Shown here one piece after another: positions 24,230 to 64,000 of a DNA stretch of 64,000 nucleotides. The position numbers and the translations under genes are program-made. A model generated the notes under the pieces. It was not told the DNA's origin, did no database searches, and saw only the letters and a program-made list of their open reading frames with translations. The first letter of the stretch is position 1; each line of letters starts with the position of its first letter. The stretch is from Polyangia bacterium (GTDB taxonomy: Bacteria > Myxococcota_A > Polyangia > Fen-1088), in contig JBJMQQ010000013.1 in assembly GCA_045802645.1 (NCBI GenBank), positions 1,588 to 65,587 of the forward strand, read 5' to 3'.

Positions 24230-24287
24230 GCGTCCCCTCCTGCCTCCCGCGAGGCTCAGGTCATTGCCGGCGCGCATTTCGCGCGCG

Positions 24288-24499
24288 GGTGCTGGCAGGT
24301 CTTCGGGCTCGCGAGCGTGTCGGCCGTTTGGCCGCGTGCCTACCGTCCCCGGCTTCCCAACCCCGAAAGGGGATCAGTGCCGGCTCGGCTCGTCGCCAAG
24401 CTGGGGACTTCGTTCTCGCCTACCGCTGCGGGGCAGCCCCGGATTCCGACCGGGTTCCCTTTTGGCCCGCGAGACCATCCCCGCGGGTCACCAGCACAG
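24288..24499 (-). ncRNA. Cobalamin (B12) riboswitch in nrdAB 5' leader (minus strand)
   Basis: The reverse complement contains CAAAAGGGAAcccGGTcgGAATCCggGGCTGCCCCGCAGCGGTAgg and a B12-box GCTCGCGAGCCCGAAGACCTGCCAGC identical to the metE copy. A GCCTCGCGGGAGGC hairpin abuts the AGGAGG RBS. Confidence 0.75.
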
Positions 24500-24505
24500 G
24501 ACGCA

Positions 24506-24534
24506 ACGTAACGCACTGTATGGTCATGCGTCAA
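24506..24534 (-). promoter_or_regulatory. Putative promoter for nrdAB riboswitch leader (TTGACG-N17-TTACGT on minus strand)
   Basis: It has the same spacing and the same downstream GCGTCCTG(C/T)TGGTG start as the metE leader promoter. It lies in the 75-nt gap after the upstream gene stop. Confidence 0.3.
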
Positions 24535-33778: not shown

Positions 33779-33841
33779 CCCGTCTAGCTTGTACCCGATG
33801 CGGTTAAGAGGTGGTTTCGGACCGGTACAATGTAAGTAACC

Positions 33842-35233
33842 TTAAATCCCGACCTGCGCCTCCGCCAGGTTGCGGACAGGCGCGGCGGCGGAGGCCGTCT
33901 TGCGGGCGTAGAACCACCACGTCAGCGCCACGCACGTGACGTAGAAGCCCAGGAACCCGCGCAGCGCCAGCTCGACGCCGCCCGTCGCGTGGATCGACGC
34001 GCCGAACGAGCGCGGGATCAGGTAGCCGCCGCAGGCGCCGATGGCGGACGTGAAGCCCAGGACGGCCGCGCTCTCGCGGCGGGCGACGGCCAGCGCCTGA
34101 CGCTCGGCCTCGGGGCCCTGGCCCTCGACGGCGCGCAGCTTCTCGCGACGGAAGATCACCGGGATCATGCGGAATGTCGAGCCGTTCCCGACGCCGGTCG
34201 TCACGAACAGCAGCAGGAACACCCCCAGGAATCCGCCGAACGAATGCTGGTGAACGAAGTGCGTCACCCCCAGCGTCGCCAGCCCCATGAGGACGAAGTT
34301 CCACATGGTCACGCGGGTGCCGCCGATCCGGTCGGCCAGCTTGCCGCCCAGCGGCCGCGCAATGGACCCGACCAGCGCGCCAAGGAAGGCGAGGTTCATC
34401 GTCACCTGCGGAAACTGCGTCTTCAGCAGCAGCGGAAACGCCGCCGAGTACCCGATGAACGAGCCGAACGTGCCGATGTAAAGCCACGACATCACCCAGG
34501 TGTGCTTGCTGCGCGTGACGGTGATCTGGTCGCGGAACGTCGAGCGCGCCGAGGCGAGATTGTTCATGAAGCGCGCCGCACCCAGCGCCGCGATCGCGAT
34601 GAGCGGCATCCAGAAGAGGCCCGCGTTCTCGAGGTGCAGCTTCGTCGTGGCGGCCAGGATGGGCACGGTCATGACCAGCGGGATCAATAGCTGGACCGTG
34701 CTGACGCCGATGTTGCCGCCCGCCGCGTTGAGCCCCAGCGCGAACCCCTTGGCGCGGTCCGGGTAGAAGAACGAGATGTTGGCCATGCTGGAGGCGAAGT
34801 TTCCGCCGCCCAGTCCGGCCGTCGCCGCCGCCATCGCCATCAACCAGAACGGGGTCGACGGATCACGAACCAGCAGCACCAGCGCCGTCGTCGGGATGAA
34901 CAGCAGCAGCGCGCTGACGATCGTCCAGTTTCGGCCGCCGAAGCGCGGGACCGCGAACGTGTACGGGAACCGCATCAACGACCCGATGAGCCCGGGCAAC
35001 GCCACCAGCGAGAAGAGCTGCTCCGTCGTGTAGTGGAATCCGACCTTGTTGAGGCGGGGCGCCACGACGCTCCAGATCAGCCACACCGAGAACCCGATGT
35101 TCTCGGCCAGGATCGACCAGATCAGGTTGCGGCGCGCCACGCGCCGGCCCGTCTGGCGCCAGAACGTCTCGTCTTCGGGGTTCCACTCGCTGATCCAGTG
35201 CGGACCCGTGTGAGCTTCTTTCGCGGTCTTCAT
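33842..35233 (-). CDS. narK: Nitrate/nitrite transporter, MFS NNP family
   Basis: 12-TM MFS protein with NNP-like GLNAAGGNIGVS signature. ATGA coupling to nirD. Confidence 0.88.
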   Translation of the reverse strand: MKTAKEAHTGPHWISEWNPEDETFWRQTGRRVARRNLIWSILAENIGFSVWLIWSVVAPRLNKVGFHYTTEQLFSLVALPGLIGSLMRFPYTFAVPRFGGRNWTIVSALLLFIPTTALVLLVRDPSTPFWLMAMAAATAGLGGGNFASSMANISFFYPDRAKGFALGLNAAGGNIGVSTVQLLIPLVMTVPILAATTKLHLENAGLFWMPLIAIAALGAARFMNNLASARSTFRDQITVTRSKHTWVMSWLYIGTFGSFIGYSAAFPLLLKTQFPQVTMNLAFLGALVGSIARPLGGKLADRIGGTRVTMWNFVLMGLATLGVTHFVHQHSFGGFLGVFLLLFVTTGVGNGSTFRMIPVIFRREKLRAVEGQGPEAERQALAVARRESAAVLGFTSAIGACGGYLIPRSFGASIHATGGVELALRGFLGFYVTCVALTWWFYARKTASAAAPVRNLAEAQVGI

Positions 35234-35625
35234 TGTCGGACTCCGTTTCGCGGCGCGATGCCGATTGCGACCCGGCCGTCGCGCACACGGACCGGGTAGA
35301 CGGGGAGCTTCACCAAGGGGTCGTCGAAGCAGGCGCCCGTCTCCAGGTCGAACGTCTGCTTGTAGATGGGGGAGGCGATCTTGGGGCGGCCGCCGCGGTC
35401 GCCCACGATGCCGCGGGCGATCACGAAGGCCTGACTGAACGGGTCGTAGTTCGACAGCGCGTAAACGCGGTCGCCCTCGTCGGGGCGAACCAGCGCGATC
35501 TGGCGGTCGCCGACCAGCGCAGCGACCCCGCTGGCGGGCGGGATGTCGTCCAGCGCGCAGGTGTCGATCCAGATGACGTCGGGCTCGGGCGCGGCCAGCG
35601 CTTCGACGTGGATGGCGACGCTCAT
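35230..35625 (-). CDS. nirD: Nitrite reductase [NAD(P)H] small subunit (Rieske-like)
   Basis: 131-aa C-terminal part of the shadow ORF 35230..37347 (MSVAIHVEALAAPEPDVIWIDTCALDDIPP...). Flanked by ATGA overlaps with nirB and narK. Confidence 0.85.
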   Translation of the reverse strand: MSVAIHVEALAAPEPDVIWIDTCALDDIPPASGVAALVGDRQIALVRPDEGDRVYALSNYDPFSQAFVIARGIVGDRGGRPKIASPIYKQTFDLETGACFDDPLVKLPVYPVRVRDGRVAIGIAPRNGVRQ

Positions 35626-38180
35626 GCCGCCTCCTTCTTGGCCGCGTGGGCTGGATCGGCGAGGCGGTCCAGCAGGTCGCGCTTTTCGTCGGGGTGGGCC
35701 GGGCGCGGTTGCCCGCGCTCGCGGATGAAGACCAGGCTGGGATCGGCGGCGGGGCTGTTCACGAACCCGCGGAACTGGGCCAGCTTCTGCGGGTCCTCCA
35801 GCGCGTCCTTCCACTCGCACTTGTACGTGCCGACCACGTGAGCCATCTCGGCTTCCAGCTCGGCGCCGATGCCCAGCTTGTCGTCGACGACCACCTCGCG
35901 CAGATACGCGATGCCCCCCTCGAGGTTGTTGAGCCAGCCGGCGGTCCGCTGCAGCCGGTCGGCCGTGCGGATGTAGAACATCAGGAAGCGGTCGATGTAC
36001 TGGACCAGCGTCGCCTCGTCGAGGTCGGTCGCCAGGAGCTGCGCGTGCTGCGGCTTCATGCCGCCGTTGCCGCAGACGTAGAGGTTCCACCCCTTCTCCG
36101 TCGCGATGATCCCGAAGTCCTTCCCCTGCGCCTCGGCGCACTCGCGCGCGCACCCGGACACGGCCGACTTCAGCTTGTGGGGGCTGCGGAGCCCCTTGTA
36201 GCGGTTCTCGATCCGCACGGCCAGGCCGACGGAGTCCTGCACGCCGTAGCGGCACCAGGTGTCGCCGACGCAGGACTTCACGGTCCGCAGCGACTTGCCG
36301 TAGGCGTGGCCGGACTCGAACCCGGCCGCGACCAGGTCGCGCCAGATCAGCGGAAGCTGGTCGACGCGCGCCCCCAGCATGTCGATGCGCTGGGCGCCCG
36401 TGATCTTGGTGTAGAGGCCGTACTTCTTGGCGATCTCGCCGATCGTGACCAGCTGGTCGGGCGTGATCTCGCCGGCCGCGACGCGCGGGATCACCGAGTA
36501 GGTTCCGTCGCGCTGGATGTTGGCCAAAAATCGATCGTTGGTGTCCTGCAGCGGGCGGTGCTTGCGTTCCAGCACCGGCTCGTTCCAGGCGGACGCCAGG
36601 ATGGACGCCACCGCCGGCTTGCAGATCTCGCAGCCGCGCCCGCGCCCGTGCCGCGCGATCAGCTCGTCGAACGTCTTCAGCTTGTGGACGCGCACGAGCT
36701 GATAAAGGTCCTGGCGCGAGCAGGGGAAGTGCTCGCAGAGCGCGTTGTTGACGGCGACGCCGGCCTTCTTCAGCTCGATCTTCAGGAGGTCGTTCAGCAA
36801 CGGCACGCAGGAGCCGCAGCTGGTGCCGGCGCGCGTGCAGCTCTTGAGGGCGCCGACGGCCTGCGCGCCCCCCGCGATCGCCTGGCAGATGGCCCCCTTG
36901 TCGACGTTGTTGCAGCTGCAGATGGTGGCCGACGCGGGCAGGCTGTCGACGCCCATTCCGGCGGGCGCCTCGCCGGGCGGCAGCAGCAGCGCCTCGACCT
37001 TCACGGGCAGCGCCGCCTTGCTCTGGACCATCGCGACCAGCTGCGCGTACTGCGACGCGTCCCCGACCAGGATGCCGCCCAGCAGGCGCTGGCGGTCGGC
37101 CGAGACGACCAGCTGCTTGTAGACGCCCGCCACGTTGTCGATGAGGCGCAGCGTGTGGGCGCCGCCCTCCAGGCCGAACGCGTCGCCGAAGCTGGCGACG
37201 TCCACGCCCAGCAGCTTCAGCTTGGTGCTCATGTCGAAGTGACCGAGGTGCCGGCCCGCCGTCTCGGCCAGCTCGTCGGCGGCGACCTGCGCCATCGTGT
37301 AGCCGGGCGCGACCAGGCCGTAGCAGCGGCCGTCCCAGGCCGCGCACTCGCCGATGGCCAGGATGTCGGGGTCGGAGGTGCGGCAGCGGGCGTCGATCTC
37401 GATGCCGCCGCGCTGCCCCACCGCCAGGCCGGCGGCGCGCGCCAGCTCGTCGCGCGGGCGCACGCCGGCGGAAAAGACGATCAGCGACGCGTCCAGCGCG
37501 CCACCGTCGGAGAGCTGCAACCCCATCGCGCGTCCCGTCTCGTCCGTCAGCACGCGCTTGGCGGAGACGCCGGTGTGGACGGCCACGCCCAGCGTCTCGA
37601 TGTGGCGGCGCAGGATGGCGCCGCCGGCGTCGTCGATCTGCAGCGCCATCAGCCGGGGCGCGATCTCGATGACGTGGGTCTCGAGGCCCAGGTTACGCAG
37701 CGCGTTCGCCGCTTCCAGCCCCAGCAAGCCGCCCCCGATGACCACGCCCACGCCGGCCGAAGCGACCGATGCGGCCGCGGCGATGGCCTCCAGGTCTTCG
37801 ATCGTGCGGTAGACGAAGCAGCCGGGGGCGTCGCGCCCCTCGACGGGGGGGACGAACGGCGACGACCCGGTGGCCAGCACCAGCTTGTCGTAAGGGAGCG
37901 TCACGCCGGCCGCGGTGCGGACCACCTTGGCGGCGCGATCGATCGAGGCGACCGCGTCACTCAGGACCAGGCGGATGCCCGCCGTTTCGTAAGCTTCGCG
38001 TGAGGTCAGCGCCAGCGGCTCGGCGCCGCCGTCGAAGAACTTCGTGAGGTTGACGCGATCGTAGGCGGGCCGGGGCTCTTCGCCGACCACCGTGATGTCG
38101 AAGTGGCCGGCGTCGCGGCACAGCTCGACCAGCCGGTGTCCGACCATTCCGTTTCCGACGATGACCAGTTGGGGTGCCAT
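35622..38180 (-). CDS. nirB: Nitrite reductase [NAD(P)H] large subunit (FAD/NAD, BFD-like 2Fe-2S, sirohaem-4Fe4S domains)
   Basis: MAPQLVIVGNGMVGHRL... Rossmann fold, CSCNNVDKGAICQAI BFD-like motif, sulfite/nitrite reductase haem-binding region CVGDTWCRYG...SGCARECAEA. Confidence 0.92.
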   Translation of the reverse strand: MAPQLVIVGNGMVGHRLVELCRDAGHFDITVVGEEPRPAYDRVNLTKFFDGGAEPLALTSREAYETAGIRLVLSDAVASIDRAAKVVRTAAGVTLPYDKLVLATGSSPFVPPVEGRDAPGCFVYRTIEDLEAIAAAASVASAGVGVVIGGGLLGLEAANALRNLGLETHVIEIAPRLMALQIDDAGGAILRRHIETLGVAVHTGVSAKRVLTDETGRAMGLQLSDGGALDASLIVFSAGVRPRDELARAAGLAVGQRGGIEIDARCRTSDPDILAIGECAAWDGRCYGLVAPGYTMAQVAADELAETAGRHLGHFDMSTKLKLLGVDVASFGDAFGLEGGAHTLRLIDNVAGVYKQLVVSADRQRLLGGILVGDASQYAQLVAMVQSKAALPVKVEALLLPPGEAPAGMGVDSLPASATICSCNNVDKGAICQAIAGGAQAVGALKSCTRAGTSCGSCVPLLNDLLKIELKKAGVAVNNALCEHFPCSRQDLYQLVRVHKLKTFDELIARHGRGRGCEICKPAVASILASAWNEPVLERKHRPLQDTNDRFLANIQRDGTYSVIPRVAAGEITPDQLVTIGEIAKKYGLYTKITGAQRIDMLGARVDQLPLIWRDLVAAGFESGHAYGKSLRTVKSCVGDTWCRYGVQDSVGLAVRIENRYKGLRSPHKLKSAVSGCARECAEAQGKDFGIIATEKGWNLYVCGNGGMKPQHAQLLATDLDEATLVQYIDRFLMFYIRTADRLQRTAGWLNNLEGGIAYLREVVVDDKLGIGAELEAEMAHVVGTYKCEWKDALEDPQKLAQFRGFVNSPAADPSLVFIRERGQPRPAHPDEKRDLLDRLADPAHAAKKEAA

Positions 38181-38216
38181 CGAGATTCACGGTAGGGGAG
38201 TCCACGTTTCTCGATG
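38176..38216 (-). promoter_or_regulatory. 9-bp perfect inverted repeat enclosing nirB start codon (CCATCGAGA-N23-TCTCGATGG)
   Basis: Read from the sequence. The 3' arm on the mRNA contains ATG 38178-38180. Confidence 0.35.
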
Positions 38217-38332
38217 GTCAAGACACGGTCAAAGGTCGTTAATTCTGCCGCCGCAGCGTCGGCTGCGTTGTTTACGGCTGTTGGCCGAATCTTGACGCCG
38301 ACGAAACGTGCGCCAGCGGATGCTGATCATCG

Positions 38333-40432
38333 ATGGATCCCACGCCCGCGACGAGCACCGCGACGCGCACGCACTGCCCTTACTGCGCGTTCCAGTGCGG
38401 GATGCTGGTCAGCCCCGGTGAGGTGAAAGGCGATCCCGACTTTCCCGTCAACCGCGGTCAGATGTGTGTCAAAGGATTCACCGCCGGCGAGCTCCTGGCG
38501 CACCCGGCGCGGCTGACGACGCCGCGCTTGCGCGGGCGCGACGGGCGCCTCGTCGACGCGAGCTGGGACGCCGCCCTGGACTTCGTCGCCGAGCGACTGC
38601 TGGCGCTGCGCGCCGCGCACGGGCCGGCGTCGCTGGCCGCGTTCGGAAGCGGCGCCCTCACCAACGAGAAGGCGTATCTGCTGGGAAAGTTCGTGCGGGT
38701 CGCGCTGGGTTCGCCGAACATCGACTACAACGGGCGCTACTGCATGGCGTCCGCGGCGGCCGGTCAGAACCGGGCGTTCGGGATCGATCGCGGCTTGCCG
38801 TTCCCCGTTGCCGACATCGCGCGCACGAAGACGTTGCTGCTGTGGGGCGCCAACTCGGTCGACACGATGCCGCCGCTGGCGCAGTGGATCGGCGAGCAGC
38901 AGGCGCAGGGACAGCTGATCGTCGTCGACCCGCGCCGGTCCGAGACCGCGCGGCGCGCAGACCTGCACCTGCAGCTCACGCCGGGCACCGACCTCGCGCT
39001 GGCCAACGGCCTCCTGCACCTGGCGATTGACGAGCGGCTGATCGACACCGCGTACATCGCCGCCCGGACCGTCGGGTTCGAGGCGGTGCGGCGGACGGTG
39101 ATGGAGGTTCACCCGGCGCACGTCGAGCGTCTGACCGGCGTGTCGATCGACGACCAGCTGCGGACGGTGCGGCGACTGGCCGTCGAGGACAGCGCCATGC
39201 TGCTGTCGGGGCGCGGTCCCGAGCAGCAGGCCAAGGGCTCGGAGACGGTGCTGGCGTTCACCAACTTGATGCTGGCGCTGGGCAAGGTGGGGCGCCCCTA
39301 CAGCGGCTACGGCTGCCTGACCGGGCAGGGCAACGGGCAGGGCGGGCGCGAGCACGGCCAGAAGGCGGACCAGTTGCCGGGCTACCGATCGATCGAAGAC
39401 GCGTCCGACCGGGCGGCTGTCGCGCGCGTGTGGGGCGTCGACCCGGCGACGTTGCCGCCGAAGGGCAAGAGCGCCTACGAGCTGCTGGACAGCCTGGGGC
39501 CGGAGGGCGGCATCCGCGGCCTGCTGGTCTTCGGGTCGAACGTGGCGGTCGCTTCGCCGAACGCGCGAAACATCGTGCGCAAGCTGGCGGCGCTGGACCT
39601 GCTGGTCGTCTGCGACGCCTTCGACAACGAGACCGCGGCGGACGCGCACGTGCTGCTGCCGACGCTTCAGTGGGCCGAGGAAGAGGGGACCATGACCAAT
39701 CTGGAAGGGCGCGTGCTCTTGCGTGAGCGAGCCGTGCCGCCGCCCGTCGGGCCGCGCAGCGATCTCGAAATCTTGTCCCAGCTGGCCGCGCGGCTGGGGC
39801 ACGGCGACAAGTTCCAGTTCGCCTCGGCCGAAGCGGTGTTCGACGAGCTGCGCGCCGCGACGGCCGGCGCGCGCGCCGATTACAGCGGGATCAGCCACGC
39901 CCGCATCCGGCGCGAGCAAGGGGTGTTCTGGCCATGCCCGGCCGAGGATCACCCGGGCACGCCGCGCCTCTTCGCCGAGAAGTTCGCGTTTGCCGACGGG
40001 CGCGCCCGGTTCCACGCCGTCCGGCACCGGCCGTCGGCCGAGGTGCCCGACGGCGAGTACCCGCTCTACTTCACGACCGGGCGGTACCGGGAACATTACA
40101 ACTCGGGGGCGCAGACCCGCCGCGTGCCGGCGCTGGTGCGCGCGCGGCCCGAAGCGCGCCTGCAGGTTCACCCACGGCTGGCGGCGCGGCTGGGCGTGGC
40201 GGACGGCGAGGCGCTGCTGCTGGAGAGCCGGCGCGGCACGGCCACGTTCACCGTCGAGCTCACCGCCGACGTTCGCCCCGACACGCTGTTCGCGCCGTTT
40301 CACTGGGGCGGTTCGTCTTGCGCAAATCTACTGACGAACCCGGCGCTGGACCCGCTGAGCCGGATGCCGGAGTTCAAGGTCTGCGCCGTGCGCGCCCGGG
40401 CGGCGGGCGCCGGCGAAAGGGCGGCGTCGTGA
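38333..40432 (+). CDS. nasA: Assimilatory nitrate reductase catalytic subunit (molybdopterin oxidoreductase, N-terminal 4Fe-4S)
   Basis: N-terminal CPYCAFQCGM...C Fe-S motif. Molybdopterin oxidoreductase and MopB C-terminal domains. Confidence 0.9.
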   Translation: MDPTPATSTATRTHCPYCAFQCGMLVSPGEVKGDPDFPVNRGQMCVKGFTAGELLAHPARLTTPRLRGRDGRLVDASWDAALDFVAERLLALRAAHGPASLAAFGSGALTNEKAYLLGKFVRVALGSPNIDYNGRYCMASAAAGQNRAFGIDRGLPFPVADIARTKTLLLWGANSVDTMPPLAQWIGEQQAQGQLIVVDPRRSETARRADLHLQLTPGTDLALANGLLHLAIDERLIDTAYIAARTVGFEAVRRTVMEVHPAHVERLTGVSIDDQLRTVRRLAVEDSAMLLSGRGPEQQAKGSETVLAFTNLMLALGKVGRPYSGYGCLTGQGNGQGGREHGQKADQLPGYRSIEDASDRAAVARVWGVDPATLPPKGKSAYELLDSLGPEGGIRGLLVFGSNVAVASPNARNIVRKLAALDLLVVCDAFDNETAADAHVLLPTLQWAEEEGTMTNLEGRVLLRERAVPPPVGPRSDLEILSQLAARLGHGDKFQFASAEAVFDELRAATAGARADYSGISHARIRREQGVFWPCPAEDHPGTPRLFAEKFAFADGRARFHAVRHRPSAEVPDGEYPLYFTTGRYREHYNSGAQTRRVPALVRARPEARLQVHPRLAARLGVADGEALLLESRRGTATFTVELTADVRPDTLFAPFHWGGSSCANLLTNPALDPLSRMPEFKVCAVRARAAGAGERAAS

Positions 40433-54385: not shown

Positions 54386-56746
54386 ATGCCCGACGCCACG
54401 CTGACGGATGACGAGCTCGAGGCCACGGACGCCTACTGGCGCGCCGCGAACTACCTGACCGTCGGGCAGATCTATTTGAAGGACAACCCGCTCTTGCGCG
54501 AGCCGCTGCGCGCCGAGCACGTCAAGCCACGCCTCCTTGGTCACTGGGGCACGTCGCCGGGGTTGAACCTGGTGTACGTCCACATGAACCGGGCCATCCG
54601 CACCCGCGGGCTGAACGCGATCTTCCTGGCCGGCCCCGGTCACGGCGGCCCGGCGGTGCTGGCCAACGTTTACCTCGAGGGGACGTATTCGGAGACTTAC
54701 CCGGCGATCACGACGGACGTCGCGGGGCTGCGCGCGCTGTTCCGGCAGTTCTCGACCCCGGGCGGTGTCCCCAGCCACGTCAGCCCGCCCACCCCCGGGT
54801 CGATTCACGAAGGCGGCGAGCTGGGCTATGTGCTGAGCCACGCGTTCGGCGCGGTGTTCGACAACCCGGATCTCGTCGCCGTGGCGGTGGTCGGCGACGG
54901 TGAGGCGGAGACCGGGCCGCTGGAAGGGTCCTGGAAGGGAATCAGCTTCCTCGATCCGCGCCGTGACGGCGCGGTGCTGCCGATCCTGCACCTCAACGGC
55001 TACAAGATCTCGGGGCCGACGGTGCTCGGACGCTCGACGGACGAAGAGGTCGCCGCGTTGCTGCGCGGGCACGGCTACGACCCGCGGTTCGTGGCCGGGG
55101 ACGATCCGCCCGTCGTGCACCGCGCGTTCGCGGCGGCGCTGGCCGGCGCGCTGGACACGATCGCCGACATTCAGAAGACCAGCCGGACGTCCGGGGTGGG
55201 CGTCCGGCCGCAGTGGCCGGTCCTGGTCTTGCGCACGCCCAAGGGGTGGACGGGGCCGAAGACCGTCGACGGCGTGCCCGTCGAAGGCACGTTCCGCGCG
55301 CACCAGGTGCCGCTGGCGGAGGTCCGCAGCAACCCGGCGCACCTGGCGATGCTCGAGTCCTGGATGCGCAGCTACCACCCCGAGGCGCTGTTCGACGACC
55401 AGGGGCGTTTGATCGAGCGGCTGCGCGCGCTGGCGCCGTCCGCGGATCGGCGCATGAGCGCCAACCCTCACGCGAACGGCGGCCCCCTGTCGCGCCCGCT
55501 GGACCGGCCGGACTACGCGGCCCACGCGATCCGCGTCGAACGTCCGGGCGCCGAGCGGCACGAATCGACCCGCCAGCTGGGGCTGTGGCTGCGCGACATC
55601 TACGCGCGCAACCCCGACAACTTCCGGCTGTTCTGTCCGGACGAGACCAACTCGAACCGCCTGGGCGCGGTGTTCGATCAGCAGAGCCGCTGCCTGGTCG
55701 AGCGACTGGAGCCCGGCGACGACCACGTCGCCACCGACGGGCGCGTGATGGAGGTGCTGAGCGAGCACAACTGCGAAGGCTGGCTGGAAGGTTACGTTCT
55801 CACCGGCCGCCACGGGATCTTCGCGACGTACGAGGCGTTCGCCTTGATCGTCGCGTCGATGGCGACCCAGCACGCGAAGTGGCTGGAGGCCTGCCTGGAT
55901 TTGCCGTGGCGCGCCCCGGTGCCGTCGCTGAACATCCTGCTGACGTCGACGTGCTGGCGGAACGACCACAACGGCTTTTCGCATCAGGGGCCGGGCTTCA
56001 TGGACACGATCCTGTCCAAGAAGGGCGCCATCTCGCGCATCTACCTGCCGCCCGACGCGAACTGCCTGCTGTCGATGGCCGACCACGCGCTGGCCAGCCG
56101 AAACTACGTCAACCTGCTGATCATCGACAAGCAGCCCGAGCTGCAGTGGCTGAACCTGGAGGCCGCGCGCGAGCACTGCGCGCGCGGCGCCTCGATCTGG
56201 GAGTGGGCCGGGACCGCGGGCGGTGACGCGCCGGACGTCGTGCTGGCGTGCGCCGGTGACGTCCCAACGCTGGAGACGATGGCTGCCGCCGCCTGGCTGC
56301 GGCAGCGCGCGCCCGGCCTGAAGACCCGCGTCGTCAACGTCGTCGATCTCATGGGTCTCTATTCGCCGGACGAGCACCCGCACGGGATGACCGACGACCG
56401 CTTTGCCGGCCTGTTCACGCACGACACCGACGTCGTGTTCGCGTTCCACGGATACGCGGGCGCGGTGCACCAGGTCTTGCACGGCCGCCCCAACCCCACC
56501 CGCTTTCACGTGCGCGGCTACCGTGAAGAGGGGACCACCACGACCCCGTTCGACATGGTGGTCCTGAACGGGATGAGCCGCTTTCACCTAGCGGCGGAGG
56601 CGCTGAAGCGCGCCCGCCGCCCGCCCGCTGACGCCGACCTGCTGATCGACGAATGCACGGCGATCCTGAAACGGCACCGCGCCTACGTTCGCGAGCACCT
56701 GGAGGACCTGCCCGAGATCCGGGACTGGACCTGGCCGGCCGCGTGA
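54386..56746 (+). CDS. xfp: Phosphoketolase (xylulose-5-P/fructose-6-P phosphoketolase)
   Basis: [30 protein letters not shown]-binding regions. Full-length 786 aa. Confidence 0.92.
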
Positions 56747-57873
56747 GCACGCCAGGCGCGCCACGCTCGATCGTCTGCCTCAATTGTGGCTCCTCGTCGG
56801 TCAAGGCCGCCTGGCTCGAGCCGGCTGACGGCGAGCGGCCCGGCGCCGAGCGCCACGTGCGCTCGGCGAACGTCGAGGGGACGGGGGCGGGCGCGATCAC
56901 GGCGGCGCTGGAGCAGGTCGCGCCGCCCGGGACGGCTCCGGCCGCGGTCGCGCACCGGCTGGTGCACGGCGGCAGCCACTACACGGCGCCGACGCGCGTC
57001 GACGCGCGCGTGGCGGCCGACCTGCGCGCGCTGGTCCCGCTGGCGCCGCTGCATCTGCCCAGCGCGGTGGCCGGCATCGACGCCGCCCGTGCGCGCTGGC
57101 CCGACCTGCCCCAGGTCGCCTGCTTCGACACCGCTTTTCACGCGACGCTGCCGGAGGTCGCACGGCGGCTGCCGCTGCCCGCCGCCGTGCTGGGCGGCGA
57201 AGTCCGCCGCTACGGCTTCCATGGATTGTCGTACGCGCACGTGATGTGGACGCTGGGGGCTGACGCGCCGGCGCGGCTCGTCATCGCGCACCTGGGCAGC
57301 GGCGCCAGCCTGGTCGCCGTCGCGGGCGGGCGCGCCGTCGACACGACGATGGGGTTCACCCCCGCCGGCGGCATCCCGATGGGGACGCGAACCGGTGACC
57401 TGGACCCGGGCGCGCTCTTCTACCTGGCGCGCGCGCGCGGTCTGTCGCTGGACGCGCTGGAACAGATCTGCGAGCACGAATCAGGGCTGCGCGGGATCGG
57501 CGGCAGCGCCGATGTCCGCGCTCTGGAGGCGCGGGCCGCGCAAGACAGCGACGCCGCGCTGGCGCTGGCGATGTTCGGCTACGGGGTCCGCAAAGCGATT
57601 GGCGCCTTCGCGGCCGTGCTGGGCGGCCTGGACCTGCTGGTGTTCACGGGCGGCATCGGTGAGCACGCGCCAGCGGTGCGCGCGGAGGCGTGCCGCGGAT
57701 TGGAGGCGCTGGGCGTGCGGCTGGATCCGGCCCGCAACGGCCGCAACGCCGACCGGATCAGCAGCGACCAGAGCCCCTGCGCCGTCCGCGTCGTCCCCGC
57801 CGACGAGGAGGGGACGATGGCGCGCGAGGCCCGTGCGTTGCTGGCCGGGCCCCTTCAGTCGCGGGCCGGGTGA
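56743..57873 (+). CDS. ackA: Acetate kinase
   Basis: GTG start overlapping the xfp stop. [14 protein letters not shown] and HRLVHGG motifs. Confidence 0.88.
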
Positions 57874-58904
57874 TCGGCGGCAACGGCGCGCTCGACGCCG
57901 TCGAAGAGCGCGTGACCCAGCCAGGCCACCCCGGCGCCGAGCAACGTGCACACGGCGCGGTGGACGACTACGGTCCGTTCCGCGGCGCCGGCCAGCGCCA
58001 GAAGGAAAACGACGTAGGCGGTCAGCGTCGCCACGAACGCGGCGTAGTTCACGAACACCAACACGTAGCTGGCCGCGGCGAACAGCAGCACCAGCCCTGA
58101 CACTGCCAGCGGGTTGGGGTGGATGGCCCACGCCGCCAGCGTCGCGAGCGCGGCGCCGGCCAGCGTGCCGGCCGTCCGGGCGACCCCGCGCTCGAGCGTC
58201 TGCCGGAACGCCGGCCGGGTGACGATCGCCGCGGTCATCGGGATCCAGTAGCTGTTGGCGAGACCGACGACCCGGGCCAGCCCCATCGACACAGCCAGGA
58301 CGATCCCGGCATGGGCGGCGCGCCAGGCCCGCGCCCGGTTGGTGTTCCCGGCCGGCGCCGCCACAGGGGAGGCGGGGCCCGGAATCCGGCCCGCCACCCG
58401 CCACGCGGTCGAGACCACCAGCATCTGCAAGAGCCCGCCGGCCAGCGCGCAGGATCCGCGCACCAGCGCCAGGGTTCCGTGCGCGGGGTAGGCCGTCGAG
58501 ATCACCAGCCAGATGAGACACTGCAGCGCCAGCCACGACGCGCCGGGGCTGGACGCCCAGGCGAGGCCACAGGCAGCCCCCCACAGGCCGGTCAGCGCGA
58601 TCGTCAGTGCCGGCGACAGACCGGCCAGCGTGCCGATCCAGCTGGAAAGGCAGATCCCGACCGCCGCCACCAGCATCGGCAACCGGCGCGACCCGCGGAT
58701 CTGCTGGAACGACCCCAGCCCGACGGAGAACGCGCCGGCCGCCGCCATGATGCCGACCCGGGGGCGGCCGACGGCGGCGCCCGCCGCCAGCGACAGCGCC
58801 ACGGCCGGCAGGCACAGCAGCGCGGCTCCCGGCTGCGCGCGCGACCAATCGAACGCCAGCGTTCGCTTGACCAGCGGTTCGATTCGGCGCGTGCCCGCCC
58901 GCAT
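57855..58904 (-). CDS. FUSC-family (fusaric-acid-resistance/aromatic-acid-exporter-like) integral membrane protein
   Basis: ~10 TM helices with a pattern typical of the YccS/FUSC family. Convergent 19-nt overlap with ackA. Confidence 0.65.
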   Translation of the reverse strand: MRAGTRRIEPLVKRTLAFDWSRAQPGAALLCLPAVALSLAAGAAVGRPRVGIMAAAGAFSVGLGSFQQIRGSRRLPMLVAAVGICLSSWIGTLAGLSPALTIALTGLWGAACGLAWASSPGASWLALQCLIWLVISTAYPAHGTLALVRGSCALAGGLLQMLVVSTAWRVAGRIPGPASPVAAPAGNTNRARAWRAAHAGIVLAVSMGLARVVGLANSYWIPMTAAIVTRPAFRQTLERGVARTAGTLAGAALATLAAWAIHPNPLAVSGLVLLFAAASYVLVFVNYAAFVATLTAYVVFLLALAGAAERTVVVHRAVCTLLGAGVAWLGHALFDGVERAVAADHPARD

Positions 58905-59105
58905 GCCCGAGAGTCTACGTGATCAGGGTTTGGTCACACCGACCTGGGCGCCAATGCGATACTCGGGCGTGCCGATCACGCCGCCGGAACCAGGTTCCCA
59001 GCGCCGCAATGCGGTCGTTCGGCCGGCACGCGCAGTTCCTGCCGGCGGGCTGGCGGCGCCGCGAAGCAATTGCGGGACAACCGGGCGCGCGACGCGGCGT
59101 TCAGC

Positions 59106-59121
59106 GGGAACGCCGGTTGCA
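59106..59121 (+). promoter_or_regulatory. Sigma-54 promoter-like element GGGAACGCCGGTTGCA upstream of small-ORF/mgtA operon
   Basis: -24 GG 59107-08, -12 TTGCA 59117-21, exact spacing. Predicted transcription start site ~59132, followed by SD AAAGGAGG 59141-48 and ATG 59155. Confidence 0.5.
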
Positions 59122-59154
59122 GAAGCACTGAGGGTCTTCAAAAGGAGGCTCACG

Positions 59155-59526
59155 ATGCTCACCCGCTTTCTGGCGATCCTTCTCGCTCCCTGCTTGCCGC
59201 TGGCCGCCCTGATCGTTCCCTTGTCCACGGCGCATCACGTTTCGGCCCTGCTGGCAGGGACAGCCGCCACGGTGCTGGCGGCGTTCGCCTTCAGCAGCGA
59301 CCGCGCGCGCTTCGCGGCGGCCGCCGTTGCCGCCTGGGTCGCGCTGACGGCGTTGCTGTTCCCCTCGACGCTGCTGGAAGAGGTGATCGTGCTTTCCTGG
59401 GGCGTTCCGATGTTCGCGTGCCTGGCGGGGCCGTTCAGCGCGCCACCGGTGGTCACGCGTACCGCCGCGCCCGCCGCGGCCGCCGCGCCACCGCGCGCCG
59501 CTGAGCATCTGCCGATGGCCGCATGA
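59155..59526 (+). CDS. Small (124 aa) membrane protein with Pro/Ala-rich C-terminus, translationally coupled to mgtA
   Basis: Strong SD. Three hydrophobic helices. Tail PPVVTRTAAPAAAAAPPRAAEHLP. Stop overlaps the mgtA ATG (ATGA). Confidence 0.55.
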   Translation: MLTRFLAILLAPCLPLAALIVPLSTAHHVSALLAGTAATVLAAFAFSSDRARFAAAAVAAWVALTALLFPSTLLEEVIVLSWGVPMFACLAGPFSAPPVVTRTAAPAAAAAPPRAAEHLPMAA

Positions 59527-62084
59527 GCACGACGGCCGCCGGCCACGCCACCGGGGAGCCGGACGCCTTCTGGGCGGCGGAGCCCGGCGACCTGTACGGG
59601 CGGCTGCAGAGCACCGCGCTCGGCCTCGCTGCTGACGAGGCCGCCGCGCGCCGCAAGTCCGTCGGCCCCAACGCGCTGGCGCAGGGGCGGCGCACCGACT
59701 TGCCGGCGCTGATCGCCGGCCAGCTTGGCAACCCGATCGTCCTCATCCTGCTGGTGGCGACGGTGCTGGCAGCGCTTTTGGGCGACGCCGCCGACGCGGC
59801 GATCGTGCTGGCGATCGTCGTGTTGTCGGCGGCCGTCGGTGTCTGGCAAGAGCACGGCGCTTCGCGCGCGGTGAAGCAGTTGATGGCGCAGGTCGCGACG
59901 CGCGCCCGCGTGCTGCGCGACGGCGCGGTCTGTGAAATCCCGATCGCCGACGTGGTCCCCGGCGATGTCGCGCTGCTGGACGCCGGCCGCAGCGTACCCG
60001 GCGACGGCCGTTTGCTGGAGGCCCGCGATCTCTTCGTGTCAGAGGCGCCGCTGACCGGCGAGAGTGAGCCCGCGGAGAAGGGCGCGGCTGCCAGCCCCGC
60101 CGATGCGCCGCTGGCCCGGCGAACCAGCGCCGTGTTCCTGGGGACGCACGTGGTCAGCGGCGCAGCGCGCGTGCTGATCGTGCGCACGGGGCCGCGCACG
60201 GAGCTGGGGCGGGTCGCCGCGCGCGTGGCGGCGCGTCCGCCCGAGACGGACTTCGAGCACGGCCTGCGCCGCTTTGGCTACCTGCTGATGGAGCTGACGC
60301 TGCTGCTGGTGCTGGGGATCTTCGCCGTGAACGTCTACTTCGCGCGCCCGGTCCTGGAGTCGTTGATGTTCTCGCTGGCGCTGGCGATCGGGCTGACGCC
60401 GCAGTTGTTACCGGCGATCGTGGCGGTCAACCTGGCCCGCGGCGCGTCCCGCATGGCGGCCCAGAAGGTGATCGTGCGGCGACTGGCGTCGATCGAGAAC
60501 CTGGGGAGCATGACGCTGCTGTGCTCCGACAAGACGGGCACGCTGACGGAAGGGCGGCTGACGTTCGAGGGAGCCGTCGACGGCGATGGTCAGCCAAGCG
60601 AGCGCGTGCGGCGGCTGGCGTTCTTGAATGCGGCTCACGAGACCGGCTACGCCAGCCCGCTGGATCAGACGTTGCGCGACCTGGCGGTCACGGCCGTGGA
60701 CCCGGCTGACAAGCGTGACGAGATCCCCTTCGACTTCGTGCGGCGGCGCCTGTCGGTGCTGCTGGCGACCGACGGGGGCCTCCTCATCACGAAGGGCGCC
60801 GTGGGCGCGGTCCTGGATGCGTGCGACACGGTGGCGACGGCCGCTGGCGTCGTGCCGCTGGACGGGCGCCGCGCGGCGATCGAGGCGGGCTTCACCGGCG
60901 CGTGCGACGACGGGCTGCGCGTCATCGCCGTCGCGACGCGCGCGCTGCCCGGGCGTGTCGCCGTCACGCGCGACGACGAGCGCGGCATGACCTTCGCGGG
61001 GCTGGTTCGCTTTCACGATCCACCCAAGGCCGACGTGCGCGCCGCGCTGGACGAGCTGGCGGGCCTGGGTGTGGCCGTCAAGGTGGTCACCGGCGACAAC
61101 GCGGCGGCGGCGCGCGCGCTGGCGCGGCGGTTGGGGATCGCGGCGCCGGTCGTCGTCACCGGGACCGAGCTGCGCCACGCCGCCGCCGCGGCGCTGCCCG
61201 CGCTGGCCCGCACCGTCGACATCTTCGCGGAGGTCGAGCCGACCCAGAAGGAACAGATCGTCACCGCGCTGCGCCGGTCGGGCCACGTGGTGGGATTCCT
61301 GGGCGACGGCATCAACGACGCGCCGGCCCTGCACGCGGCCGACGTCGGCATCTCCGTCGCGGGCGCCGCCGACGTCGCGCGCGAAGCGGCCGACCTGGTG
61401 CTGCTGGAAAAAGAGCTGAGCGTGGTCGCCCGCGGCCTGCGCGAGGGGCGCCGCACCTTCGCGAACACGCTGAAGTACGTGTTCATGGCGACCAGCGCCA
61501 ACTTCGGAAACATGTTCAGCATGGCCGGCGCCTCGCTGTTCCTGCCGTTCCTGCCGCTGGTCCCGAAGCAGGTGCTGCTGACGAACATGCTGACCGACAT
61601 GCCCGAGATGGCGATCGCCTCCGACACCGTCGACGACGCGGACGTCGCGCGGCCGCGCCGCTGGGACCTGGGGCTGGTCCGCCGCTTCATGATCGTGTTC
61701 GGCCTGGTCAGCTCGGTGTTCGACTACCTGACGTTCGGGGCTTTGTTGTGGCTGGTCGGCCCGCAGCCGGCTGCGTTCCGGACGGGCTGGTTCGTCGAAT
61801 CGGTCGTCTCGGCCGCCAGCGTCGTGCTGGTCATCCGCAGCCGGCGGCCGCTGGGCCGCAGCCGGCCCGGCCGGGCGCTGGTGAAGGCGACGGGGCTCTG
61901 CGTCGCGGCGACCGTGGCGCTGCCTTTCTCCCCGCTGGCCCGGCCGCTGGGACTGGTGCACCCGCGCCCGGCCGTGCTGGCGCTGATCGGCGTCATCGTC
62001 GTCAGCTATGTGGCCGTCGCCGAGCTGGTGAAGCGGTGGTTCTTTGCCCGATTCGTACCCGAGATCGTAGACCCGCGGGCGTAA
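59523..62084 (+). CDS. mgtA: Magnesium-translocating P-type ATPase
   Basis: DKTGTLT, GDGINDAPAL, TGES motifs. MgtA-like N-terminal region and 10 TM helices. Confidence 0.88.
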   Translation: MSTTAAGHATGEPDAFWAAEPGDLYGRLQSTALGLAADEAAARRKSVGPNALAQGRRTDLPALIAGQLGNPIVLILLVATVLAALLGDAADAAIVLAIVVLSAAVGVWQEHGASRAVKQLMAQVATRARVLRDGAVCEIPIADVVPGDVALLDAGRSVPGDGRLLEARDLFVSEAPLTGESEPAEKGAAASPADAPLARRTSAVFLGTHVVSGAARVLIVRTGPRTELGRVAARVAARPPETDFEHGLRRFGYLLMELTLLLVLGIFAVNVYFARPVLESLMFSLALAIGLTPQLLPAIVAVNLARGASRMAAQKVIVRRLASIENLGSMTLLCSDKTGTLTEGRLTFEGAVDGDGQPSERVRRLAFLNAAHETGYASPLDQTLRDLAVTAVDPADKRDEIPFDFVRRRLSVLLATDGGLLITKGAVGAVLDACDTVATAAGVVPLDGRRAAIEAGFTGACDDGLRVIAVATRALPGRVAVTRDDERGMTFAGLVRFHDPPKADVRAALDELAGLGVAVKVVTGDNAAAARALARRLGIAAPVVVTGTELRHAAAAALPALARTVDIFAEVEPTQKEQIVTALRRSGHVVGFLGDGINDAPALHAADVGISVAGAADVAREAADLVLLEKELSVVARGLREGRRTFANTLKYVFMATSANFGNMFSMAGASLFLPFLPLVPKQVLLTNMLTDMPEMAIASDTVDDADVARPRRWDLGLVRRFMIVFGLVSSVFDYLTFGALLWLVGPQPAAFRTGWFVESVVSAASVVLVIRSRRPLGRSRPGRALVKATGLCVAATVALPFSPLARPLGLVHPRPAVLALIGVIVVSYVAVAELVKRWFFARFVPEIVDPRA

Positions 62085-62170
62085 GGCGCGCAGATTATGC
62101 GCGAGCGTGCGGGCCGGCGCAGGAATTGCGGCGGCCTGGAAAAACAGCCGCGCTGGACAGGACTTCCCGG

Positions 62171-62186
62171 TGGCGCGGCGGTTGCA
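62171..62186 (+). promoter_or_regulatory. Sigma-54 promoter-like element TGGCGCGGCGGTTGCA upstream of sigma-54 activator gene
   Basis: -24 TGGCGC, -12 TTGCA, exact spacing. Followed by AGGAG 62201-05 and GTG 62217. Confidence 0.5.
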
Positions 62187-62216
62187 ATCCCGACCATCCA
62201 AGGAGCTGTGCGCACC

Positions 62217-63599
62217 GTGGAAAGCAAAGGACGGATTCTGATCGTCGACGACGAGGTCAATGCCCGCACCGCGCTCGTCGAGCTGCTGCGCGACGAGGGC
62301 TACGCTGCCGAGTCGGCGGCCGACGCGTTCAAGGCGCTGGGCAAGGTGGCGGACTTCGCGCCCGACCTGGTGGTCACTGATCTCAAGATGCCCGGGATGG
62401 ACGGGCTGCAGCTGCTCGCCAAGCTGCGCGAGGGCGACCCCGACCTGCCGATCATCGTGATGACCGCGTTCGGCGAGGTCGAGACGGCAGTGAAGGCGAT
62501 GCGCTCGGGCGCGCGCGACTACCTGTCCAAGCCCGTCAACGTCGGCGAGCTGTCCGTGGTCGTCGCGCGGGAGCTGGAACAGCGGCGGCTGCGCGCCGAG
62601 ACCGGCCTCTTGCGCCAGCGCCTGTCGGAGAAGTACAGCTTCTCGAACATCATCGGCAGCGCGGCGCCCATGCAGGCGGTGTTCAAGACGGTCGCCCAGG
62701 TCGCGTCGTCGCGAGCCACCGTCCTCATCACCGGCGAGTCGGGGACGGGCAAGGAGCTCATCGCGGCGGCCATTCATCAGCGCAGCACGCGCGCGAGCGG
62801 ACCGTTCGTGAAGCTGCACTGCGCGGCCCTTGCCGAATCGATCCTGGAGAGCGAGCTCTTCGGGCACGAGCGCGGCTCGTTCACCGGCGCGCAGGCGCGC
62901 CGCGACGGGCGCTTCTTCCAGGCCCACAACGGCACGCTGTTCCTGGACGAGATCGGCGAGATCTCGCCGGCCGTCCAGGTGAAGCTGCTGCGGTTCCTGC
63001 AGGAGCGCGAGTTCGAGCGGGTCGGGGGCAACGACACCATCAGCGTCGACGTGCGCCTGCTGGCCGCCACGAACCGCAACCTGCAACAGATGGTCGCCGA
63101 CGGAAAGTTCCGCGAGGACCTCTTTTATCGCCTGAACGTCATCACCGTCGAAATGCCGGCGTTGCGCGCTCGGCTCAGCGACGTGCCGCTGCTGGCGTCG
63201 TTTTTCCTGCGCAAGTACGCCGCCGAGAACGGCAAGGACGTCCGCGGCTTTTCGGGCGAGGCCCTGGATCTGCTGAGCGGATATGCCTGGCCAGGGAACG
63301 TGCGCGAGCTAGAGAACGTCGTCGAGCGCGCCGTGGTGCTGGCGCAATCCGCCGAGGTGACGCCGGCGGATTTGCCCGCCCATCTCGGCGCCGGCAAGGG
63401 GCGCGCCGGCGTGCAGATCCCCGGCGCGACGATGGACGACATCGAGCGCTACGCGATCACCAAGACGCTGGAGGCGACGGGCGGCTCGACGAGCCGGGCC
63501 GCCGAGATGCTGAACATCAGCGTCCGCAAGATCCAGTACAAGCTGCACGAGTACGAGAGCGCCCCCAAGTCCGCCCGTTCCGCGATCAGTCAGGCGTAG
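62217..63599 (+). CDS. Sigma-54-dependent response regulator (NtrC family: receiver + AAA+ + Fis HTH)
   Basis: ILIVDDE...VVTDLKMPGMDG receiver. GESGTGKE Walker A. GAFTGA-equivalent GSFTGA. C-terminal HTH AAEMLNISVRKIQYKL. Confidence 0.88.
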   Translation: MESKGRILIVDDEVNARTALVELLRDEGYAAESAADAFKALGKVADFAPDLVVTDLKMPGMDGLQLLAKLREGDPDLPIIVMTAFGEVETAVKAMRSGARDYLSKPVNVGELSVVVARELEQRRLRAETGLLRQRLSEKYSFSNIIGSAAPMQAVFKTVAQVASSRATVLITGESGTGKELIAAAIHQRSTRASGPFVKLHCAALAESILESELFGHERGSFTGAQARRDGRFFQAHNGTLFLDEIGEISPAVQVKLLRFLQEREFERVGGNDTISVDVRLLAATNRNLQQMVADGKFREDLFYRLNVITVEMPALRARLSDVPLLASFFLRKYAAENGKDVRGFSGEALDLLSGYAWPGNVRELENVVERAVVLAQSAEVTPADLPAHLGAGKGRAGVQIPGATMDDIERYAITKTLEATGGSTSRAAEMLNISVRKIQYKLHEYESAPKSARSAISQA

Positions 63600-63600
63600 G

Positions 63601-64000
63601 TCAGCCGGCGACGGGCAGCGTGAAGGTGAAGCAGGTGCGGCCCGGCCGCGAGGCCACCCGGATCGTGCCGCCGTGGTCGGCGACGATCCGGTGCGCCAGC
63701 GACAGCCCCAGCCCGGTCCCCTGATCCTTGGTCGTGAAGAAGGCGTCGAAGACCGGCAGGTCGTTCGGGAACCCGGGCCCGTCGTCCTCGACGTCGATCT
63801 CCAAGGTCTCTCCGTCGCGCCGCGCCCGTAGCGTGAGAAGGCCGCCCCGGCCCTGCATCGCCTCCACCGCGTTGCGGATCAGATTGAGCAGCACCTGGCG
63901 CAGGCGCTCGGCGTCGCCGGTCGCCGCCGGCAGTTCGGCCGGGACATCGAGGGCCAGCGTGACGCGCGCCGCTTCGGCCTCCGGCCCGACCAGCCCGGCG
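63601..64000 (-). CDS. Sensor histidine kinase, C-terminal HATPase_c domain (N-terminus beyond window end)
   Basis: NLIRNAVEAM...DDGPGFP...GTGLGLSL... G1/G2 boxes. The frame is open to the window edge. Confidence 0.8.
   Translation of the reverse strand, partial: AGLVGPEAEAARVTLALDVPAELPAATGDAERLRQVLLNLIRNAVEAMQGRGGLLTLRARRDGETLEIDVEDDGPGFPNDLPVFDAFFTTKDQGTGLGLSLAHRIVADHGGTIRVASRPGRTCFTFTLPVAG

Follow-up and report, generated by a model that had tools for sequence, protein, structure and literature searches.

We examined a 64-kb stretch of DNA (71% G+C; this whole stretch is referred to as the window) from an uncultured member of the Polyangia (Myxococcota). In it, the gene for a small membrane protein is followed by a gene for an MgtA-type P-type ATPase and then by genes for a sigma-54 activator and a histidine kinase. 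An earlier note on this DNA had placed a sigma-54 motif with exact spacing, designated P1 here, ahead of the small open reading frame (ORF), with a consensus Shine-Dalgarno sequence behind it, and had described the stop codon of the small ORF as overlapping the start codon of mgtA. All three observations were borne out. The features at the front of the operon are as follows.

59106-59121, plus strand: sigma-54 promoter P1 (-24/-12 element), GGGAACGccggTTGCA, conserved in 39 of 40 loci at a set distance from the ATG
59142-59148, plus strand: Shine-Dalgarno sequence AAGGAGG, 6 nt ahead of the ATG
59155-59526, plus strand: small membrane protein of 123 amino acids (aa), first gene of the operon (55 homologues, dN/dS, alignment, hydropathy)
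59523-62084, plus strand: MgtA-type (type IIIB) P-type ATPase of 853 aa (TIGR01524, motifs, structural relatives)

Promoter P1 and the small membrane protein

The P1 motif (GGGAACGCCGGTTGCA) has GG at 59107-8 and GC at 59119-20, which is the exact GG-N10-GC spacing, and it matches 10 of the 12 specified positions of the sigma-54 consensus. Transcription is predicted to start near 59132, which would give a leader of about 23 nt. Relatives of the small protein numbered 55 in a large protein collection, and all of those with a named source came from "Polyangia bacterium." Loci with the small ORF were located in species-representative genomes (7 loci, all from Myxococcota or Polyangia metagenome-assembled genomes [MAGs]) and in soil and rhizosphere metagenomes (33 loci). 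The promoter comparison set comprised 40 loci with a small-ORF homologue, from which 37 nonredundant sequences were used for column counts. The alignment was anchored on GG and TGC only, and the remaining columns were unforced.

A GG-N10-GC element with TTGC(A/T) ending 24 to 36 nt ahead of the small-ORF ATG was present in 39 of the 40 homologous loci. The form kept across loci was GG(A/C)A-N6-TTGC(A/T), with a lineage consensus of GGAAC(G)-N4-TTGCA. Among the unforced columns, the first T of TTGC was invariant (37 of 37), motif position 4 was A in 35 of 37 sequences, and the last base was A in 30 sequences and T in 7, while the 4-nt spacer and both flanks had background composition. Because the core columns were invariant, the flanks were at background, and neighboring synonymous divergence was saturated, the alignment gives a clear -24/-12 footprint. 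Judged by this phylogenetic footprint, P1 is a genuine sigma-54 promoter, and its significance derives from position and conservation, not from the frequency of the motif in the window. The Shine-Dalgarno sequence (AAAGGAGG) was likewise kept in homologous loci. A scan of 58800-64000 for sigma-70 promoters and terminators returned nothing useful.

The small ORF begins with the ATG at 59155 and ends with the TGA at 59524-59526. It had been described as encoding a 124-aa Pro-rich membrane protein. The designation as a membrane protein stands, with a length of 123 aa (a count of 124 includes the stop), whereas "Pro-rich" is a weak description of a protein that is mainly Ala-rich and hydrophobic, with about four hydrophobic helices and 12 Pro among its 123 residues (7 in the last 33). 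Values of dN/dS against 16 homologues were 0.2 to 0.4 (0.64 for the most distant) at dS values of 0.3 to 1.6, and G+C at third codon positions (GC3) was 0.85. The hydrophobic helices and a C-terminal LP(L/M)AA were kept in the protein alignment. By these measures the small ORF is a real protein-coding gene under purifying selection.

The family to which the small protein belongs is narrow, because a profile search of 1.84 billion representative proteins returned only 44 members. The window protein had no matches in Pfam and NCBIfam, including none to PF03779 (SPW repeat) at an E value of ≤1, and PF03779 matched 14 of 22 homologues weakly (best E value, 6e-06). Therefore, the small protein would be at most a divergent relative of the SPW-repeat family. 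It resembles SPW repeat proteins in its size (about 120 to 130 aa), in having two repeats of two hydrophobic helices, and in carrying an (A/S)PW-like motif near the start of helix 1 and, in helix 3, an SW(G) motif. It differs from them in having APC in place of APW, as well as in the lack of a PF03779 match. An AlphaFold model had four to five helices at low confidence (mean pLDDT, 62).

The C-terminus, LP(L/M)AA-COOH, is encoded at 59506-59523 and is kept in homologues with or without an overlapping start codon. Because it is kept regardless of such an overlap, it is a property of the protein. We take this end to resemble the LAA end of the ssrA tag recognized by ClpXP and FtsH, and by that analogy it may be a built-in degron.

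The ATPase and its variable link to the small ORF

The ATPase scored 711.7 bits against TIGR01524 (magnesium-translocating P-type ATPase; cutoff, 610.75) and fell below the cutoff of the PRK15122 subfamily model (666 versus 975). Its catalytic motifs (TGES178, DKTGT336, and GDGIND594) are intact, and its closest solved relatives are MgtA structures (8uy7; E value, 8.7e-178). From these family assignments, Mg2+ is the probable substrate.

The ATG of the ATPase at 59523 overlaps the stop codon of the small ORF (ATGA), an arrangement through which translation of the ATPase may be coupled to that of the small ORF. Among the homologous loci, the junction between the two genes was a 4-nt overlap in six, 3 to 9 nt in four, and 26 to 37 nt in eight. 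As far as these junctions indicate, cotranscription of the small ORF and the ATPase gene is general, and stop/start coupling is confined to the clade of the window.

To compare operon order, six proteins were mapped onto all loci, 38 of which were informative for the gene behind the small ORF. The ATPase gene occupied this position in about 21 of the 38, including the window and its closest relatives, L044 and L045. Where no ATPase gene was present behind the small ORF (at least 17 loci), the next gene encoded an extracytoplasmic function (ECF)-type sigma factor, an AAA_33 protein, the activator, or another product. The sigma-54 promoter was present in loci with and without the ATPase. The small protein had been described as coupled specifically to mgtA. 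That claim did not hold: the small ORF comes first in the operon in every locus, but an ATPase gene trails it in no more than about 21 of 38, so the small protein is neither a partner nor a leader dedicated to mgtA. A role as a pump accessory is possible on this evidence, yet it would not be the sole role of the protein.

Loci L012 and L014 (and L017) are nearly the same in the small ORF and its promoter. The activator gene comes straight after the small ORF in L014, whereas in L012 genes for the ATPase and then the ECF-type sigma factor stand between the two. It looks as though a cassette of about 3.3 kb was recently gained or lost within the operon. Because two loci with near-identical promoters differ in the presence of the ATPase and ECF-type sigma factor genes, the pump is optional cargo.

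Two forms of leader control were considered and rejected. A search of 58850-59650 against Rfam gave no match to an M-box or other leader RNA at an E value of ≤1, and with a predicted leader of only about 23 nt, control of the ATPase by a leader RNA was rejected. The small ORF as an mgtL-like, Pro-sensing leader was rejected because the Pro residues of its tail are mostly unconserved and because the ORF occurs without mgtA.

Paired upstream sites, promoter P2, and the adjacent activator

The region upstream of P1, and that between the ATPase and activator genes, contain pairs of predicted sites of the type bound by NmpR of Myxococcus xanthus. NmpRSTU is an oxygen-limitation phosphorelay of M. 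xanthus (Bretl et al. 2018, PMC6211767; McAllister et al. 2025, PMC11841059). In this relay, NmpU is a protoglobin kinase that is active with heme and O2, NmpT is a REC-REC protein, NmpS is a hybrid REC kinase, and NmpR is an NtrC-like activator; a CBS gene, mxan_4236, heads the nmpR operon and is NmpR dependent (PMC6211767; PMC11841059). The NmpR site, GCGCA-N5-TGCGC, was defined by electrophoretic mobility shift assays and lacZ reporters. Two such sites, usually 14 to 15 nt apart, lie upstream of a required sigma-54 site that points the same way as the gene, with the proximal site being essential and with binding best where at least one site is perfect. The NmpR promoter is autoregulated, with an NmpR-dependent 6.5-fold induction under hypoxia (PMC11841059). 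The corresponding features of the window are as follows.

59030-59044, plus strand: distal predicted NmpR-type site S1 of P1, GCGCAgttccTGCCG, 1 mismatch to GCGCA-N5-TGCGC
59061-59075, plus strand: proximal predicted NmpR-type site S2 of P1, GCGAAgcaatTGCGG, 1 mismatch, 16 nt past S1 and 31 nt ahead of the -24 GG
62088-62102, plus strand: distal predicted NmpR-type site S1 of P2, GCGCAgattaTGCGC, perfect match, beginning 4 nt past the ATPase stop codon
62117-62131, plus strand: proximal predicted NmpR-type site S2 of P2, GCGCAggaatTGCGG, 1 mismatch, 14 nt past S1 of P2
62171-62186, plus strand: sigma-54 promoter P2, TGGCGCGgcggTTGCA, 1 mismatch to the consensus (11 of 12 specified positions)
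62217-63599, plus strand: NmpR-like NtrC-family response regulator of 460 aa with a GTG start (Pfam REC, Sigma54_activat, HTH_8)
63601-64000, minus strand: NmpS-like hybrid histidine kinase, C-terminal portion (HATPase_c) only; its gene converges on that of the activator and is truncated at the window edge

The site motif was derived from the Polyangia loci independently, before comparison with the published NmpR site, and the two are equal. For the enhancer scan, CGCA-N5-TGCG was sought with at most 1 mismatch up to 130 nt upstream in 34 nonredundant loci, with random 115-nt segments of the same loci as controls. At least one site was found in 33 of the 34 loci, compared with 12.3% of control segments, and two or more sites were found in 25 of 34, compared with 1.8%. 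In the window the 13-mer cores of the distal and proximal P1 sites begin at -76 and -45 from the GG. These are the modal site positions across the nonredundant loci, 31 bp apart from center to center. The plus strand of the window contains seven exact copies of the core pattern, three of which lie upstream of P1 or P2. A search of the whole window for further NmpR-type promoters returned P1 and P2 only.

Promoter P2 is the best sigma-54 match in the window (TGGCGCGgcggTTGCA) and lies between the ATPase stop codon (62082-62084) and the GTG of the activator gene (62217). Its transcription start is predicted near 62197. Between the ATPase and activator genes, the scan of 58800-64000 detected neither a sigma-70-like promoter nor a terminator. 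P2 was kept as TGG(C/T)(C/G)CG-N4-TTGCA ahead of the activator gene in L001, L009, L012, L014, L016, and L040, where the arrangement is the same as in the window; homologues of its distal site were noted in L009, L012, L014, L016, and L040. In L012, L014, and L016, P2 is 12 to 15 nt from the activator GTG. In some other loci a Usp gene abuts the activator gene in place of the P2 layout.

The earlier note was correct that a sigma-54 activator and a histidine kinase lie directly downstream of the ATPase gene. The activator has D55 and the Walker A, GSFTGA, and Walker B motifs. It is 100% identical to a 460-aa protein of a Polyangia MAG at NCBI and shares 79 to 95% identity with its counterparts across loci; its best 120 matches came without exception from metagenomes or MAGs, and none of these was from M. 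xanthus. Residues D55 and V88 correspond, with an offset of one residue, to D54 and V87 of published NmpR, which lends weak support to the assignment. The kinase fragment is 83% identical to the C-terminus of a REC-PAS-HisKA-HATPase protein of L009.

Gene order in the related loci provides further points of comparison with NmpRSTU. Where a locus was long enough to include the small ORF and the activator gene, the two were syntenic in essentially all cases. The conserved order on the plus strand is small ORF, (MgtA-type ATPase), (ECF-type sigma-70 r2/r4), (AAA_33), and NtrC-type activator, and REC-REC and CBS genes are conserved on the minus strand ahead of the small ORF. Facing this row in relatives are genes for a REC-PAS-HisKA-HATPase kinase and a Protoglobin-HisKA-HATPase kinase. 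Thus, related loci carry NmpS-like, NmpU-like, and NmpT-like (REC-REC) genes as well as CBS genes. A divergent sigma-54 promoter for the CBS gene, TGGCAC-N5-TTGCG, is present on the minus strand 150 to 230 nt upstream of the small ORF in L001, L003, L007 to L011, L018, L025 to L029, and L034, and it matches the NmpR-dependent promoter of the M. xanthus CBS gene (mxan_4236). The CBS start codon is 12 to 13 nt past the -12 element, which would leave the CBS mRNA with little or no leader. The divergent small-ORF and CBS promoters flank two NmpR-type sites, which, from their placement, may serve both.

These results suggest that the locus is most probably an NmpR-dependent sigma-54 operon in an uncultured member of the Polyangia, and as such a new target within the NmpRSTU regulon already known from the response to oxygen limitation. 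What we observed directly is the sequence elements with their conservation, the families of the proteins, and the synteny; that the neighboring activator is the protein that binds the sites is what we infer from them. The suggestion that this activator, encoded 2.7 kb downstream, is the regulator of the operon is supported by the presence of the same paired sites upstream of both P1 and the activator's own promoter, P2. Because the activator, kinases, and binding sites match those of NmpRSTU, oxygen limitation is the likely signal, and by this analogy the operon would respond to hypoxia rather than to Mg2+.

Several observations weigh against this interpretation. The P1 motif alone is no rarer than chance in a window of 71% G+C: TGGCACG-N4-TTGCA with at most 2 mismatches was observed 9 times against 7.3 expected, and GG-N10-GCA was observed 280 times against 271 expected. 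L006 is the sole homologous locus without the motif at the expected spacing; in this locus (7840-8000, TGGGCATCGACCGCCCATTGCT) the distance from GG to GC is 17 nt, not 12 nt, which may reflect an assembly indel or a genuinely different promoter. Both P1 sites carry 1 mismatch and they are 16 nt apart, whereas NmpR of M. xanthus prefers 14 to 15 nt. The activator has GSFTGA instead of the canonical GAFTGA, and its probable orthology to Mxan_4240 is based on architecture, synteny, and the binding motif. Genes for nmpU, nmpT, and CBS are not within the window, where only the C-terminus of the NmpS-like kinase is found.

A chance rate of matches in a GC-rich window would be expected if GG-N10-GC were fortuitous and the operon were read from an unrecognized sigma-70 or ECF promoter, and a scan with the E. 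coli consensus captures myxobacterial sigma-70 promoters poorly. However, this explanation is extremely improbable, considering that 39 of 40 loci keep an invariant core at a set distance from the ATG although synonymous divergence is saturated, that the paired enhancer sites are conserved, and that P2, a better sigma-54 match accompanied by sites of the same type, is found 3 kb farther on. It is also improbable that P1, although a real sigma-54 promoter, is served by another enhancer-binding protein and that the neighboring activator is adjacent by coincidence. Myxobacteria encode dozens of enhancer-binding proteins, the binding assignment is inferential, and the P1 sites depart from the M. 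xanthus pattern in both sequence and the 16-nt spacing. Yet the same type of site, including a perfect copy, lies ahead of the activator gene in what is the autoregulatory layout of NmpR, and the synteny of the activator gene with the small ORF would not be expected of a coincidental neighbor.

Dedicated Mg2+ control would require that the adjacent two-component system sense Mg2+ or the envelope and activate mgtA via sigma-54, with the small protein as an mgtA-specific accessory or leader. The ATPase does belong to the MgtA family, the ATGA overlap suggests cotranslation, and because neither an M-box nor an mgtL-type leader is present, some other control is needed. No published link between sigma-54 and mgtA was found in a literature search. 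However, the kinases linked to the activator in relatives are of the cytoplasmic protoglobin and PAS (NmpU/NmpS) type and are not Mg2+ sensors, and the binding site equals that of the hypoxia-responsive NmpR. Furthermore, at least 17 loci retain the promoter and the small ORF although no ATPase gene comes next, and L014 and L012, which are near-identical upstream, differ in the presence of the ATPase and ECF-type sigma factor genes. Mg2+-directed control is thus quite improbable. The earlier note had proposed it as a different regulatory solution for mgtA. The difference from known mgtA control stands, in that there is no M-box or other leader, but the Mg2+-directed novelty does not, because the activator, kinases, and sites match those of the published oxygen-sensing phosphorelay and the device is that of the NmpR regulon.

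If the operon is NmpR dependent, a mechanism can be drawn by analogy with NmpRSTU of M. xanthus. When O2 is plentiful, the NmpU-type heme (protoglobin) kinase would phosphorylate the receiver of the hybrid kinase NmpS and hold NmpS off. As O2 falls, NmpS would phosphorylate the NtrC-type activator (62217-63599), which would bind the paired GCGCA-N5-TGCGC sites upstream of P1 (59030-59075) and P2 (62088-62131), oligomerize, and spend ATP to open sigma-54 RNA polymerase at 59106-59121 and 62171-62186. Transcription from P1 would yield an mRNA with a leader of about 23 nt, from which the four-helix membrane protein and then, via the ATGA, the MgtA-type ATPase would be translated. P2, together with readthrough from P1, with no terminator having been found in between, would supply more activator and thus positive feedback.

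Neighboring genes, related systems, and implications

In relatives, the neighbors of the operon include Usp, cytochrome bd oxidase, hemerythrin, YceI, and BON genes. Immediately upstream of the operon in the window are genes for a phosphoketolase (XFP_N/XFP/XFP_C) and an acetate kinase (54386-57873, plus strand) and a divergent gene for an FUSC_2 membrane protein (57855-58904, minus strand). The neighboring genes, including those for the phosphoketolase and acetate kinase, agree with a low-oxygen response. The window and L001 share upstream synteny (CDP-alcohol phosphatidyltransferase, O-methyltransferase, desaturase, a histidine kinase/response regulator pair, and glutathione S-transferase), and the window xfp, ack, and FUSC_2 genes occupy the place of the nmpT-like REC-REC and CBS genes of L001. 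L044 and L045 have the same xfp, ack, and FUSC_2 layout. The window search returned no NmpR-type promoter for the phosphoketolase, acetate kinase, or FUSC_2 genes and no divergent sigma-54 promoter facing FUSC_2.

Other features were noted elsewhere in the window. Two cobalamin riboswitches (RF00174) were identified. One, at 18156-18366 on the plus strand (113.7 bits), lies directly ahead of a metE-type cobalamin-independent methionine synthase gene (18364-20865), and the other, at 24277-24510 on the minus strand (86.2 bits), lies ahead of the gene for the large subunit of a class I-type ribonucleotide reductase (21848-24373, minus strand). Both represent the classic case of a B12-independent isozyme switched off by B12. 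A cluster for nitrate/nitrite assimilation occupies 32726-40429; its minus strand encodes a NIT-domain sensor, an MFS transporter, and an NirB-type nitrite reductase, and its plus strand encodes a molybdopterin oxidoreductase. A Cys-rich repeat protein of at least 1324 aa is encoded at 101-4075 on the plus strand, with a start possibly before the window. It is built of units of about 60 aa (C..C..CGG.TP.C......C..C) with a Gly-rich tail, and its C-terminus (GGCDCS, a hydrophobic stretch, and RRRRPRR) resembles a MYXO-CTERM sorting signal. A chain of antisense ORFs over this gene (GC3, 0.92 to 0.98) was dismissed as an artifact.

The likeness of the Polyangia system to NmpRSTU of M. xanthus extends to an NtrC-like activator with REC, AAA+, and HTH domains, paired GCGCA-N5-TGCGC sites shortly upstream of a sigma-54 promoter, an autoregulatory layout at the activator gene (the P2 sites here), and neighbors suited to low oxygen. 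It also extends, in the related loci, to linkage with a hybrid REC-PAS kinase, a protoglobin kinase, a REC-REC protein, and a CBS gene with its own sigma-54 promoter. The two differ in host, an uncultured Polyangia lineage here, and in the head of the operon, which is an SPW-like membrane protein instead of CBS; relatives have the CBS gene in divergent orientation, and the window lacks it. The cargo also differs: an MgtA-type ATPase, an ECF-type sigma factor, and an AAA_33 protein are not named in the text of PMC11841059 on the regulon, and the P-type ATPase of the M. xanthus NmpR regulon is a cbb3-associated copper pump (PMC11841059). Finally, the spacing of the P1 sites is 16 nt compared with 14 to 15 nt.

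At NtrC promoters of the glnAp2 type, two dimer-binding inverted repeats about three helical turns apart lie upstream of GG-N10-GC, and an ATP-dependent oligomer activates transcription. The paired inverted repeats described here, 29 to 31 bp apart from center to center, have a comparable arrangement. In contrast to glnAp2, they are much closer to the promoter, with the proximal site ending 31 to 40 nt ahead of the -24 GG, and the recognition sequence and signal are different.

Control of mgtA in enterobacteria involves PhoPQ, the mgtL leader, and the M-box riboswitch, and the pump has the small partners MgtS, MgtR, and MgtU. As with those partners (MgtS is mentioned in PMC10925321), a small membrane protein is genetically tied to an MgtA-family pump. 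However, the protein here has 123 aa and about four helices, unlike MgtS/MgtR-type single-helix peptides of ≤50 aa. Also unlike the enterobacterial systems, there is no leader RNA or leader peptide, and the protein is encoded upstream in the same operon, often without the pump.

A hypoxia regulon in another phylogenetic setting, that of DosR (DevR) in Mycobacterium tuberculosis, includes Usp proteins, a CBS protein, and the P-type ATPase CtpF (PMC6879984). It is similar in being a hypoxia set under the control of heme kinases that includes Usp, CBS, and a P2/P3-type cation ATPase. The two systems are nonhomologous, however; DosR is a NarL-type regulator acting at sigma-70-type promoters, and CtpF is a SERCA-like Ca2+ pump, not an MgtA-type ATPase.

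It is conceivable, although unlikely, that the small SPW-like protein is a hypoxia-induced regulatory partner of the pump, in loci that have one, or more generally of the ECF-type sigma factor or another membrane target, with its level set by proteolysis at LP(L/M)AA. If this were true, the protein would represent a new class of multihelix accessory subunit for P-type ATPases and would provide the first function for the SPW family, and O2 limitation would be linked to Mg2+ homeostasis.

The regulatory device is already known from the NmpR regulon and is not a new regulatory principle; what is new is the cargo and the lineage. An NmpR-dependent operon at this locus would extend the NmpRSTU regulon from Myxococcus to uncultured soil Polyangia and would indicate that the NmpR recognition sequence and its two-site layout are conserved across the phylum. 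It would add an MgtA-type pump, an SPW-like membrane protein, an ECF-type sigma factor, and an AAA_33 protein to the regulon, and, with no earlier case found in the literature search, an mgtA-type gene would for the first time be predicted to depend on sigma-54. The SPW family, whose function is unknown, would gain its first regulatory context. As with CtpF in the mycobacterial DosR regulon, the presence of the pump in this operon hints that cation pumping belongs to the low-oxygen response.

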